Shown here one piece after another: positions 45,455 through 49,216 of a DNA stretch of 64,000 nt. Under the pieces are notes generated by a model. The model had not been told where the DNA came from, searched no databases, and saw nothing but the letters and a program-made list of their open reading frames with translations. Numbering within the stretch: position 1 is the stretch's first letter; each line of letters opens with the position of its first letter. Source of the stretch: Flavobacteriales bacterium (GTDB lineage Bacteria; Bacteroidota; Bacteroidia; Flavobacteriales_F; PHOS-HE28); assembly GCA_016787985.1 (NCBI GenBank), contig JAEUTC010000043.1, forward strand, positions 17,145-81,144, read 5' to 3'. The translations under genes and the position numbers were made by a program.

Positions 45455-46079
45455 TTGGGGAGAGCGTATTCGCCGTTTGGACGTGGAGCGGTGAAAAGGT
45501 CACATACGTCGGATCGGAAGCCTGAAAGAAGGCTGAAGGACGCTGCTTATTGATGAGGATGCCGACCGGTGTGTACCCATGGTGCTACGACGCGAAGCCA
45601 CCTGGGAGAGGCGCTGGCTGATAAAGACACTCAAGCCACCTTGATTGACCCGACTAAAGTCAGTTCACAAAGCACGAGCTTGTTGTGCCTCTTGGCGCGA
45701 AAGTACAGCAGACCACTAAATCGCTGCTACCTTGCAATGAAACGCCATTTTGACATCACAATGCACTACCTACTCACAACTAAGTGGTATCCCAGAGCTC
45801 TAGGTTGCGCCATTATGTCATTTGACCAGCGCTCCAACAGCCTTCCTCTCTACAAGATACGACGTCCTACCCACACCTGAGTTATGAACGACTTGCTGTT
45901 CCATGACAATACCCACTCTTGAATCAAAGAATCCATCATTTGACTGATTATCTGACACTTATATCCTCCTCTACTGCCCACATACAACACAACCGGTCAA
46001 GTTAGTTATTAAGGGGTCCTCATTCTGACACGGTATTTGGATGTAACATTGTGCAGCACACCAGATTGTTGATAACATG

Positions 46080-46110
46080 TTGACAAGAAAACGCACAGAG
46101 GGTAGATTTG
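46080..46110 (+). promoter_or_regulatory. Candidate Bacteroidota sigma-A promoter for the islet operon (TTG-N20-TAGATTTG)
   Basis: TTG at 46080-46082 and TAGATTTG (TAnnTTTG consensus) at 46103-46110, about 55 nt upstream of the first ATG (46166). It is overlapped by the imperfect palindrome TTGATAACA|TGTTGACAA (46069-46086, 7 of 9 pairs). Confidence 0.35.
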
Positions 46111-46165
46111 GCAAATATTTGGAGGCGTCCAGCAGAAGGTCTTCGACTAATGAACTCTAAGGCCG

Positions 46166-46396
46166 ATGAATCCAATTGAACTAGCAGACCTCATTAGGCA
46201 GTACTCGACTAATGCCAAGGTCAATCGTGAGAACTACGAGGCTGAGTTGCTTCGCATTGTTCAGGACGAGAATCAATTCAACGAACGCGTAATCAACCTT
46301 CATCGCGAGCGTGAACGAATGGAGGAAGAAGCAGAAGCCAATCGCTCATTCGATCCTGAAGTACTTCGTGTTGTGATATCTTATAAGGCCCGTTGA
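46166..46396 (+). CDS. Islet gene A: 76-aa highly charged, predicted all-helical (coiled-coil-like) protein, unknown function
   Basis: MNPIELADLIRQYSTNAKVNRENYEAELLRIVQDENQFNERVINLHRERERMEEEAEANRSF... It has no Cys/His metal motif, no TM segment and no HTH pattern that I can recognise. It ends 21 nt before gene B. Confidence 0.6.
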   Translation: MNPIELADLIRQYSTNAKVNRENYEAELLRIVQDENQFNERVINLHRERERMEEEAEANRSFDPEVLRVVISYKAR

Positions 46397-46417
46397 GTTC
46401 TACGCTCAACGCTAATA

Positions 46418-48013
46418 ATGACATCAAGTTCTTCCTGGTCTCACTACATCTGCCCAGAAGCTCAGAGTCCAAGTGAGTGGATTCTTGAGACTCTAGTCAA
46501 AATTGCAAGGAAACGCTTTCCCAGCTATAAGTACAAGGACTTAAAGAGAGATGCCCATCTCGGTTACTTCGCGGACTACTTCTCAAGTCAATCTAGGTTC
46601 ATCGCGGCAACAATCATATGTGAGCACGAATATCACAGTGTGAGCTATGCGAGTGACTATTCGAGGTATTATAGTCAAGCGCATCGCAACATTGAGAAGA
46701 AAGTTGCTCGGATTCACTTCTTCTCAGAACGTCTTCCTCGTAAAACTATAATTGATTCGTTAGGTACAGCAAATTTTAAAACGTACGTCGCAGAGAATTA
46801 TCTTGGTCATATAACGCTGAAGCCCATTCTAAACTCACTTGTAGGAGCCTCTATAGTCAAGACATACCCACAAACGAAAGCCAGATTTTTTTCCGTTGTA
46901 CGGAACTATACCGTCAATCTCTTTGGAGAAGACATTAATTTAAAATCACTTGTATTCCAACAACAAGATGGCGCGGTAAGCGCATGTGCCACTGCTGCAC
47001 TATGGATGGCCTTCCACAAAACACATCTTGATTTCAGACATGCACTGCATACACCTCACGAAATCACATCACTAGCAGGCTATGGGGACGGTGTTGGTCG
47101 AAACTTTCCCAGCACAGGACTTGATGTAAACCAAATTATTTCCGCAATAGCTGCCCATGGCCTCGACCCTGAGTTGCGCACTCGAAACAAGTTTAAGACT
47201 ACATATCTGAAAGACGACCAACTCGTCACAGAGTCGGTGCTTGAACCCATTTTCCTAAAACGATTCGCATATTCATACCTATCAGCTCAAATACCAGTGC
47301 TACTTGGCTTCAACTATGGTACTGCGTATCACCTAGTCACACTAAACGGATACCGTTTTGTTGATGACGAGAAAGAAATTATGTCCTTGAATCATGTCAA
47401 AGACGACCATCCAATGATAGCTGATTATTTATGCCGACTTTATTGTCATGATGATCAAATTGGCCCTTTCGCTCGAATTGGTTTTCCTCAGTATTTTCCG
47501 AATGCAATTTCTTTCATGCAGGAAAGCAAAATAGCTTACCCCAGAGTTTTGATTGTGCCTTTGCAAACTAGTATAAGAGTGAATTATAATGACATTAGCG
47601 ATGTAGTGCGATGGACACATCTTCAATATAAAGTGCCGGGGCAGCCAACGCCATATATATGGGATATTAGACTCCTCCGCAGTAATGACTACAAAAGGAC
47701 AGCATGCCGCAATCGAGGAATTTTACCATCGATTCGAGAAAAAATCGTAACCGCCTCATTGCCTAAATATGTTTGGGTTGCCTCCCAATACGCTGCGACA
47801 GATTTGCAACACCCTCTAATGGACATGGTATTTGATTCAACTGGCACTCGTGGTGCCTTCTGTTGTGACATGATTCATTTCTATAGTCCTGCCCAAGCAA
47901 ATCTGGCTCGAAGAGTATTTGAACAGGTACTAGCAAGTAGTAAGGATGACTACCCCGACTTTTATGCAGACATGATCGTCGAGTCCGCAACGAAACACCT
48001 TGCAAACACATGA
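46418..48013 (+). CDS. Islet gene B: 531-aa protein with a central clan-CA (papain / C39_2 / phytochelatin-synthase-like) Cys-His core flanked by unknown N- and C-terminal domains
   Basis: FQQQDGAVSAC(190)ATAALWMAF follows the Q-x6-C-[AG]-x-[AT]-[AS]-L-x-M oxyanion-Gln/nucleophile-Cys pattern. AYH(305)LVTLNGY follows the GH.VV..GY His-strand pattern. LYCHD(345)D(346)QIGP is a candidate third residue. Codons were verified: TGT at 46985-46987 and CAC at 47330-47332. Confidence 0.85.
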   Translation: MTSSSSWSHYICPEAQSPSEWILETLVKIARKRFPSYKYKDLKRDAHLGYFADYFSSQSRFIAATIICEHEYHSVSYASDYSRYYSQAHRNIEKKVARIHFFSERLPRKTIIDSLGTANFKTYVAENYLGHITLKPILNSLVGASIVKTYPQTKARFFSVVRNYTVNLFGEDINLKSLVFQQQDGAVSACATAALWMAFHKTHLDFRHALHTPHEITSLAGYGDGVGRNFPSTGLDVNQIISAIAAHGLDPELRTRNKFKTTYLKDDQLVTESVLEPIFLKRFAYSYLSAQIPVLLGFNYGTAYHLVTLNGYRFVDDEKEIMSLNHVKDDHPMIADYLCRLYCHDDQIGPFARIGFPQYFPNAISFMQESKIAYPRVLIVPLQTSIRVNYNDISDVVRWTHLQYKVPGQPTPYIWDIRLLRSNDYKRTACRNRGILPSIREKIVTASLPKYVWVASQYAATDLQHPLMDMVFDSTGTRGAFCCDMIHFYSPAQANLARRVFEQVLASSKDDYPDFYADMIVESATKHLANT

Positions 48014-48732
48014 ACTACCTGGCAAAATATCAAGGAGCAACCAAATCATGGGTGCATGAGCCCGTATCAAATGAAAGACTAGTTGAAGACCTACCTGAGT
48101 TGCTGAGTAAGGTGAATAGAGACCTCGACTTTGTCTGTATGTTCAATGGTGGTGATTGGAGTGAGCTCAATTTAGTGCTTCAGAATCCAGAGTTTCAAAA
48201 GGAGCTGCATGAAATAAGCAAGAATAAAGTTCTCTTTGTTCATCTCGTTATGAAAGGCCGAAATGATACTGGAGAGCGATTCGGCGATTTGGCACAAATC
48301 GAATTCGGCGATGACAGTAGAGCCGAATTTTGGCGAGCCTTTCTGGCGAAGAATTTTAAAGATCGGGCAGGTTCTTACATAGAGGAAATGTCTGACCTTC
48401 TAAGCAGGCCGTCAATCGCAATTTTTCGATTGTTCCGTAACTTGGATTCTAACGAAGCTCAGAGTATTGAAGATGCATTTGTACAGCCATTAATGCCAGT
48501 TTCGCGGGCAGCATACGAGAGAGACCCACTTAAGGTAGACGACATTTATGAATCCACTCTGGAGTACTTCAAGCTCATTAATGATCAAATCATTAGTGAC
48601 CAGCAACATTGGCAGGACATGAAAAAAAGAGAAGATATGCGCACATGGCTGGAGCCCCTAATCAAGAACACCCCAAAGGGGGTAAGTCTCTCAAAAATAA
48701 TTGTAATGAGCGCTTCTCAGTTCTTTGGATAA
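48010..48732 (+). CDS. Islet gene C: 240-aa soluble protein of unknown function, translationally coupled to gene B
   Basis: ATGA start/stop overlap at 48010-48013. No TM segment, signal peptide, P-loop, nuclease or other catalytic motif recognised. Same low G+C as gene B. Confidence 0.8.
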   Translation: MNYLAKYQGATKSWVHEPVSNERLVEDLPELLSKVNRDLDFVCMFNGGDWSELNLVLQNPEFQKELHEISKNKVLFVHLVMKGRNDTGERFGDLAQIEFGDDSRAEFWRAFLAKNFKDRAGSYIEEMSDLLSRPSIAIFRLFRNLDSNEAQSIEDAFVQPLMPVSRAAYERDPLKVDDIYESTLEYFKLINDQIISDQQHWQDMKKREDMRTWLEPLIKNTPKGVSLSKIIVMSASQFFG

Positions 48733-48998
48733 ATGTGAGTACAGGCTTCCTCATTTCTTGGCTGTAAACTTCACAAAGGTTCGGCCAAGTGATAGCCGGG
48801 TGGCCGGAGGGTGCCCCGTTAATCCAAGTCTCATTCAAAAAGGGTACTCAAAACACCACTTTGGAAAGAAGAAAGGTTGTCAAAGAACAACTTTGGCTGA
48901 TTCAGGGTGGACAAGAGTAGAACCAATTGCTAGTTAACTCAATTTATGGCTGTGCGATGTACGTTAATGCATGATGCACACACTAAAAGTAATTCATG

Positions 48999-49073
48999 TG
49001 GGCAATGCCGGATTCGAACCAGCGACCCCTACCTTGTCGAGGTAGTGCTCTGAACCAGCTGAGCTAATTGCCC
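48999..49073 (-). tRNA. tRNA-Val (anticodon GAC), no encoded CCA; unusual C at canonical position 33
   Basis: Manual cloverleaf: GGGCAAT TA GCTC AGCTGGTTCA GAGC A CTACC TCGACAA GGTAG GGGTC GCTGG TTCGAAT CCGGC ATTGCCC A. All four stems pair, with one G-U in the T stem. The overall sequence resembles bacterial tRNA-Val. Confidence 0.85.
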
Positions 49074-49091
49074 GTTCCCTGCGGAGGGCGG

Positions 49092-49099
49092 CAAATATA
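49092..49099 (-). promoter_or_regulatory. Candidate -7 box TATATTTG for the tRNA-Val gene
   Basis: On the minus strand TATATTTG ends 18 nt upstream of the mature tRNA 5' end (49073). No obvious -33 TTTG. Confidence 0.3.
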
Positions 49100-49216
49100 T
49101 GGTTCTGTGCCGGATTTGCGGCCCCTTGGTCCGATTTCTGATGGTCCGTCCGTGCACATCCTGATCGGGATCAGTCAGGTTGTGGTGCGTTGGCGCTAGT
49201 TTTGCGCCCGAAAGCC

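Follow-up and report, generated by a model that had tools for sequence, protein, structure and literature searches.

A cysteine peptidase and its small partner in a tRNA-Val-associated islet of a Flavobacteriales bacterium: a candidate mobile conflict module

Introduction

What does a compact operon do when it sits on a short, low-G+C piece of DNA that abuts the 3' end of a tRNA gene and has no integrase beside it? We addressed this question for an islet in a 64,000-nucleotide (nt) stretch of a Flavobacteriales bacterium (GenBank assembly GCA_016787985.1, contig JAEUTC010000043.1, positions 17,145 to 81,144), hereafter the window. The islet, 3.4 kb in size, carries three open reading frames (ORFs), A, B and C, which a preliminary description had taken for a self-contained trio. 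Gene order across 80+ loci that carry B resolves this trio differently: the recurrent unit is the pair A+B, and C is an orphan. As judged from sequence, A+B is a protease with a dedicated small partner, carried on mobile DNA. Below we set out the evidence for the pair, for the nature of B and for the acquisition of the islet, and weigh what the pair might do.

Results

Gene A is the small partner of gene B

A same-strand ORF of 50-100 amino acids (aa) ends just before B in 67 of the 77 loci on which the pairing count is based, with a median gap of 14 nt. The small upstream gene is also called by independent gene callers and by PGAP; in annotation it is often missed, and B is loosely labelled 'C39 peptidase'. 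A tblastn search with A and C from the window found neither in 80 B loci. When the A proteins are right-justified, a common tail emerges whose register is fixed to the C-terminus: a hydrophobic residue at -12 (88%), Asp, Ser or Thr at -11, an acidic residue at -9, Leu at -7 (49 of 60 distinct tails), a hydrophobic residue at -3 (77%), Thr or Ser at -2 (57%) and a final hydrophobic residue at -1 (82%). A profile of this tail was searched against 20,261 ORFs, all those of the loci plus those of the window; at E < 1 its matches were confined to ORFs upstream of B, including those at six loci outside the training set.

Untrimmed, the A protein of the window is not matched by the tail profile. Its right-justified score is -39 at full length and rises to +5.6 after removal of exactly three residues, KAR, which brings a complete tail motif into register (Table 1). 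A score this high is reached by only 3 of about 20,190 non-A ORFs; the empirical p is thus about 1.5e-4 and, corrected for the seven trims tried, about 1e-3. The same behaviour is seen in the A proteins of locus L082, with four extra residues (RLDS), and locus L083, with three (HFK). L082 also carries the closest relative of the window's B, and the N-terminus of the window's A resembles a partial A fragment of that locus. We therefore regard the A protein of the window as a divergent member of the tail-bearing family encoded upstream of B, a recognisable family where the preliminary description had seen an unknown partner.

Because both the small upstream gene and its tail motif recur at B loci, the conserved module is A+B, with A as the obligate small partner of B. 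The expectation that A-like and C-like genes would be co-conserved around B thus holds for the first and fails for the second: no gene family recurs 3' of B.

The layout of the operon is as first described, with three plus-strand ORFs of 76, 531 and 240 aa, a 21-nt gap between A and B, and an ATGA overlap of the B stop and the C start. A promoter of Bacteroidota type had been proposed upstream. The consensus pair exists, and the TAnnTTTG motif of Bacteroidota is satisfied by its second box; shuffled sequence yields such matches just as often, however, so the site is weak evidence. Between A and B lies a perfect 7-bp hairpin, which might set the A:B translation ratio.

We also noted a 13-nt near-repeat, GGCAAATAT(T/A)TGG, at 46110-46122, after the promoter-like site, and at 49090-49102, just upstream of tRNA-Val. 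It is probably due to chance or to common promoter-box composition.

Table 1. Positions of the islet, its genes and their notable parts, in window coordinates
Feature	Position	Strand	Description
Low-G+C inserted islet	45506-48997	.	from composition, homology breakpoints of relatives and empty sites
Promoter-like pair TTGACA-17-TAGATTTG	46080-46108	+	consensus match; 58 nt upstream of A
Gene A	46166-46396	+	76-aa ORF; charged, probably helical small protein; putative divergent member of the partner family
A tail motif F62-D-P-E-V-L67-R-V-V-I71-S72-Y73	46349-46384	+	equals family positions -12 to -1
A C-terminal extension K74-A75-R76	46385-46393	+	beyond the canonical family terminus; candidate piece cut off by B
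Hairpin CGTTGAG-N7-CTCAACG	46391-46411	+	perfect 7-bp stem, read from the sequence; spans the A stop codon, ends 6 nt before the B ATG
Gene B	46418-48013	+	531-aa ORF; predicted three-domain cysteine peptidase
B N-terminal alpha/beta domain	46418-46834	+	aa 1-139; invariant Y72, D80, R98, H100, F102, Y128, G130
B papain-fold peptidase core	46835-47497	+	about aa 140-360
B catalytic residue Q183	46964-46966	+	
B catalytic residue C190	46985-46987	+	
B catalytic residue H305	47330-47332	+	
B catalytic residues D345/D346	47450-47455	+	
B C-terminal alpha/beta domain	47498-47947	+	about aa 361-510; from alignment and model
Gene C	48010-48732	+	240-aa ORF; orphan, apparently lineage-restricted accessory
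tRNA-Val(GAC)	48998-49073	minus	ARAGORN and Rfam; 3' end faces the islet

Protein B is a predicted papain/C39-like cysteine peptidase with two additional domains

Relatives of B were collected by a word-indexed search, an exhaustive search at the level of 50% identity representatives and a scan of species genomes. The word-indexed search returned 76 clusters, none of which carries a Pfam domain, and the exhaustive search 5,432 representatives, 2,889 of them at E <= 1e-30. A single architecture of about 500-600 aa is common to the top 150 family members. In the species-genome scan B was found in 118 genomes of Bacteroidota, Ignavibacteria, Acidobacteriota, Planctomycetota, Nitrospirota, Pseudomonadota, Chloroflexota, Armatimonadota, Zixibacteria and several archaeal lineages. 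The B family thus appears large and widespread rather than unique to the islet, and its distribution across these many bacterial and archaeal phyla is patchy.

The AlphaFold model of B is confident (pLDDT 86, pTM 0.88) and resolves three domains. In the middle one, the invariant residues of the family alignment are Q183, D184, C190, H305, D345 and D346, so that the Cys/His core of clan CA noticed in the preliminary description is invariant throughout the family. In the model, the arrangement is that of a papain fold, with the Cys on a helix, the His and an Asp/Asn on adjacent strands and a Gln at the oxyanion position. Alignment and model together identify B as a papain/C39-like cysteine peptidase of clan CA with two extra conserved domains. 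The N-terminal one has no close structural relative; in the C-terminal one W415, L419, P449 and W453 are conserved and D473 is invariant. B is predicted to be soluble and cytoplasmic, and we found in it neither a signal peptide nor a delivery domain of the Rhs, PAAR, VgrG or CdiA type.

Assignment to an existing family is less direct. The B protein of the window matches neither Peptidase_C39 nor Peptidase_C39_2 of Pfam above the gathering score, weak matches to Peptidase_C39_2 (PF13529) occur in 6 of 29 family members (best E-value 0.0028), and a profile of the B family found no match among PDB sequences. More generally, Pfam, NCBIfam and PHROGs return nothing significant for A, B or C, and PADLOC-DB v2 gave no match to any of the three, in agreement with the earlier statement that the trio could be matched to no named defence family. 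Ten canonical members of the A and B families likewise gave no PADLOC match, and the canonical relatives of A and B also lack a match to any curated family.

The source record, JNN32_02285 (457 aa), begins B at a GTG 74 codons after the ATG used here. This start leaves out window positions 46418-46639 and cuts into the conserved N-terminal domain, with the loss of E69 and Y72. Since conserved residues are lost when translation begins at codon 75, we prefer the 531-aa reading, and the start in the record is probably a miscall. In the 531-aa reading the B protein of the window is full length and every invariant residue of the family is intact.

Some B proteins are longer, at about 670-730 aa, with an extra C-terminal domain (L169 6435-7112; L170 6354-7010; C-terminus of P0065) that contains the motif GHP-x-(L/M)-TG...AARI-x-GE...SGRYS. 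No Pfam model matches this domain, which is not related to C and might represent a fused effector or sensor.

Gene C occupies a variable slot downstream of B

Among 5.8 billion clustered proteins, C matches only itself. A gene of 221-259 aa lies directly 3' of B in the window and at loci L082, L081, L167, L006 and L009, all of them from Bacteroidota; outside these relatives the gene 3' of B is absent or unrelated. The similarity of C to the downstream genes of L082, L081, L006 and L009 is marginal (17-23% identity and one 47-residue BLAST match). In profile searches C and the downstream genes of the Bacteroidota relatives find each other as reciprocal rank-2 matches at E about 1.5, a value at which we do not claim homology. 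Proteins in this slot match no curated family, and no family occurs more than twice among 131 downstream neighbours of B, so that a recurrent third partner was not found. C is best described as a lineage-restricted occupant of a variable slot, not as a core component.

The islet is inserted at the 3' end of tRNA-Val

The drop in G+C content noted at the outset is confirmed: positions 45640-48997 have a G+C content of 0.435, against 0.59 in the left flank and 0.60 in the right. For comparison with relatives, 80 related metagenomic loci were fetched with the hydroxylase gene beyond the tRNA as probe. In at least ten of them the gene order of the window is conserved (MscS-like gene, anti-sigma gene, extracytoplasmic function (ECF) sigma gene, tRNA-Val, hydroxylase), with a hydroxylase 62-88% identical to that of the window. 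The distance between the sigma gene and the tRNA is 160-680 nt in these relatives versus 3,543 nt in the window, and none of them carries A, B, C or any other islet DNA. The tRNA-Val itself is 96-100% identical in the relatives with an empty site.

Because at least ten related genomes have the same flanks without the islet, the islet is a strain-specific insertion. Empty sites and G+C content together support the part of the earlier proposal that has the islet acquired horizontally; its role is a matter of genomic context (see below).

The alignment with the relatives breaks at about 45505, upstream of the sigma gene, and restarts at 48997/48998, the 3' end of the tRNA. The right border of the islet is thus exact and coincides with the tRNA 3' end, as had been proposed, but the left border, earlier set at 45640, can be placed only within 45506 to about 45750. 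Just outside it, about 50 nt upstream of the ECF sigma gene (45455-45505, GGGAGAGCGTATTCG...GAAAAGGTCACA) are conserved in the relatives, where other intergenic parts are unalignable; this stretch probably serves as promoter or leader of the sigma gene itself.

Insertion at a tRNA 3' end, absence from relatives and deviant composition are features that the islet shares with tRNA-associated genomic islands. The integrase and the direct repeat at the far border that also mark such islands are lacking here: the islet contains no ORF for an integrase or transposase and no Pfam match to either, and a search for repeats involving 48998-49040 found no att-like copy of the tRNA 3' end. These searches agree with the first inspection of the sequence. 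An Rfam scan of the islet returned only the tRNA. At the 5' end of the islet, about 480 nt of low-G+C DNA (45600-46080) are without a convincing gene; a 103-aa ORF (45569-45880) and a 51-aa ORF in this part match nothing, and no Rfam family is found there.

Mobile-element and defence genes near A+B

Low G+C is not peculiar to the islet: in 63 of 73 loci the G+C content of B is lower than that of the flanking DNA (median difference -0.05). B is present on four plasmids, two of them conjugative, and on no phage genome. By raw count, nine of the ten annotated A+B contexts contain defence or mobile-element genes. AbiGi lies beside one A+B locus, a type I restriction-modification system with an integrase beside one, and an AAA_21 ATPase beside one; TraG/TrwB, RadC and Dam methylase genes of integrative and conjugative elements (ICEs) occur nearby, and TrlF ATPase and Tn3 are found near A+B on a conjugative Shewanella plasmid. 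PADLOC matches among the 131 downstream neighbours are to restriction-modification types I, IIG and III, GajB, PglX, caspase and MADS components. This context fits a mobile conflict module, and it is from the context that we infer a defence or conflict role of A+B.

Three kinds of neighbourhood deserve description in their own right. On a Hymenobacter tibetensis plasmid, caspase-like (Peptidase_C14) genes flank A+B (L085 4745-6526 and 8693-11746), and one of these genes is a fusion with a DEAD-box helicase (about 1,017 aa); similar flanking is found in L065, L076, L005 and L013 (Hymenobacter and some Cytophagia). Behind this arrangement may lie either a cluster of proteases or simply a defence island.

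Two contigs have in common a five-gene block (L081 7719-14373 and L167 3080-9667), composed of A, B, a C-slot gene of 253-259 aa, a protein of 205 aa whose N-terminus is hydrophobic, and a coupling protein of the TraG/TrwB type; a helix-turn-helix gene lies upstream. The block resembles cargo carried by a conjugative element of Bacteroidota.

Finally, a Bub-type operon (multiubiquitin, ThiF E1, Prok-E2, DUF6527/BubE) adjoins A+B at two unrelated loci (L168 137-2589 and L169 1788-4136), and a Pseudomonas plasmid that carries both also has an ImmA/IrrE-helix-turn-helix pair. A functional link of A+B to the Bub operons was considered and rejected, as two loci are all there is and the Bub gene set is defined without a C39-like enzyme: Bub operons carry their own JAB and BubE peptidases (PMC11601596).

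Discussion

A tail that plugs the peptidase

The account that we favour, and to which we give a little less than an even chance, is that the islet carries a mobile conflict module of two genes, of toxin-antitoxin or abortive-infection type, together with a local accessory gene, and that the tail of A keeps B off. In the A tails the hydrophobic residues at -12 and -7 are spaced as in the leader peptides that C39 peptidases hold in their groove. As a product or pseudo-substrate, the tail would occupy the non-primed side of B's substrate groove the way a cleaved leader does, and would thereby keep B inactive. From the version of A encoded in the window, B would first cut KAR, the three additional residues. 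If A were lost or displaced, for example on infection or with loss of the element, B would be free to cut proteins of the cell or of the invader. C, presumably coupled to B in translation, could be a clade-specific accessory that acts as substrate, effector or modulator.

A bolder version of the plug model, possible and the less probable of the two, would make A+B a large new class of protease-based toxin-antitoxin or immune modules of bacteria and archaea. In it the free C-terminal tail mimics a cleaved leader of bacteriocin type in the groove of a C39-like peptidase, some members must self-trim, as with KAR, before the switch is armed, and the two additional domains of B serve as sensor.

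Several observations weigh against the plug model. The tail of A ends in hydrophobic-Thr-hydrophobic and not in the x-Gly-Gly of C39 leaders, and it is hydrophobic at -3 and acidic at -9 where C39 leaders use -4 and -8. Extended tails are seen in three A proteins only. The invariant cluster Y72/D80/R98/H100 in the N-terminal domain of B may be the real receptor of the tail or of its carboxylate, or a second active site. In contrast to most type II antitoxins, neither the A protein of the window nor ten canonical A proteins contain a helix-turn-helix, ribbon-helix-helix, AbrB or Phd-type domain, and B is much larger than typical toxins. Many neighbours of the pair are ordinary metabolic genes, and the association with defence genes is qualitative.

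Alternative accounts

The extended tails lend themselves to another explanation, in which B matures A by cutting off a short C-terminal extension and the small protein or tag is the output, maybe transferred via an acyl-enzyme intermediate. The three or four extra residues lie exactly past the canonical terminus in the three A proteins concerned, and the proximity of the pair to the ubiquitin-like Bub operons in two loci would suit a tag. Most A proteins are encoded already 'mature', however, so that cleavage is not a general function; the tail has no Gly-Gly, the module contains no E1, E2 or ligase and none recurs nearby, and the Bub operons, as noted above, come with peptidases of their own. 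We consider such maturation unlikely.

Still less probable is that B is a toxin which is secreted or transferred and acts in another cell, with A as the immunity protein of the producer, or that conjugative elements carry the pair for anti-defence. The position of the module two genes from a TraG/TrwB coupling protein in L081 and L167, and the conjugative nature of two of the four B plasmids, speak for transfer. But B has none of the signals or domains for delivery that were searched for, no secretion gene recurs beside it, and the islet of the window is without transfer genes; moreover, the immunity-like gene lies upstream of B, where polymorphic toxin loci usually have it downstream.

A very improbable option is classical C39 biology, with A as the precursor of a bacteriocin, of a ribosomally made peptide that is modified after translation (RiPP) or of a signalling peptide, whose leader B would remove for export. 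The C39-like fold, the weak Peptidase_C39_2 matches and the leader-like spacing at -12 and -7 point in this direction, but A stops where the core peptide should start, with 0-4 residues past the site equivalent to the cleavage point. Gly-Gly is absent, neither B nor its neighbours contain an ABC transporter domain, modification enzymes are missing and B is predicted to be soluble.

That the islet is junk DNA in decay, with ORFs that arose by chance or survive as relics, as the missing integrase and att repeat, the orphan status of C and the roughly 480 non-coding nt at its 5' end might suggest, is hardly credible given the full-length B with all its invariant residues, the retained family tail of A and the intact operon-like packing.

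Significance

Protease-based suicide and immune switches (caspase-like, trypsin-like, CHAT) are an active theme in prokaryotic immunity. The family is now defined as a two-gene unit with a tail motif, a set of catalytic residues and two orphan domains, and comprises thousands of clusters at 50% identity. It opens the question of whether a leader-peptide recognition mode has been reused as a regulatory plug. Our literature search found no paper or curated model for the A+B pair, nor for a protease-toxin or C39 defence module of this kind.

Comparison with known systems

Among proteases that act on or are held by a small partner, interbacterial toxins are one point of reference. Papain-fold toxins with immunity proteins are known. 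The toxins in question (StbD-CT of contact-dependent inhibition, BtaeB-BtaiB of the type VI secretion system and a GyrB/ParE-cleaving toxin) each form the C-terminal domain of a large secreted effector whose immunity gene lies downstream; in contrast, B stands alone, has no delivery domain and is preceded by its partner gene.

Proteases of ubiquitin-like proteins that recognise the C-terminal tail of the partner, trim short extensions from it and so expose it (UfSP1/2, ZUFSP and Atg4) offer a parallel to the KAR, RLDS and HFK extensions. A ubiquitin-like modifier would be a beta-grasp protein ending in Gly-Gly and served by E1 and E2 enzymes. The A tails, however, have no Gly-Gly, A looks helical and not like a beta-grasp protein, and conjugation enzymes, E1 and E2 included, are absent from the module.

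In staphopain-staphostatin, as in A+B, a papain-fold protease and a small dedicated partner share one operon. Staphostatin, a specific cytoplasmic inhibitor co-transcribed with staphopain, has a beta-barrel fold, and its gene lies downstream of that for a secreted protease, whereas A is charged, probably helical, and encoded upstream of a protease without a signal peptide. As far as PDB entry 1PXV describes the complex, staphostatin binds staphopain in the substrate direction.

The C39 peptidases are to be compared with B itself. The double-glycine leader peptidase domains of LahT150, ComA-PEP and PCAT1 have the same Gln/Cys/His/Asp set in the same order (PMC6363468). The triad is given there as Cys27/His101/Asp117 with Gln21. 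Their leaders resemble the A tails in having hydrophobic residues at -12 and -7 (LahT150 substrates), counted from the cleavage point in the one case and from the C-terminus in the other. The differences are as marked: A+B has no ABC exporter, fused or adjacent, and no transporter family recurs nearby; B has extra N- and C-terminal domains; and A ends at the position equivalent to the cleavage point, in hydrophobic-Thr/Ser-hydrophobic instead of x-Gly-Gly, with no core peptide or other cargo behind it. Lacking a Gly-Gly substrate, a transporter and a Pfam match, A+B is not a C39 system in the strict sense.

In organisation the pair resembles type II toxin-antitoxin systems. A small upstream gene is co-oriented with, and tightly and conservedly coupled to, a larger one; the distribution is patchy and horizontally spread, with occurrences on plasmids, in ICEs and in defence islands; and the C-terminal segment of the small protein is its conserved, partner-directed part. 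In A, however, no DNA-binding domain is recognisable, and B has 500-600 aa and three domains. A+B is not a standard type II system because A lacks such a domain; nor did we find in the literature a described toxin-antitoxin family whose toxin is a papain-fold protease like B. Taken together, A+B appears to work like a blend of a C39 peptidase with a type II toxin-antitoxin system.

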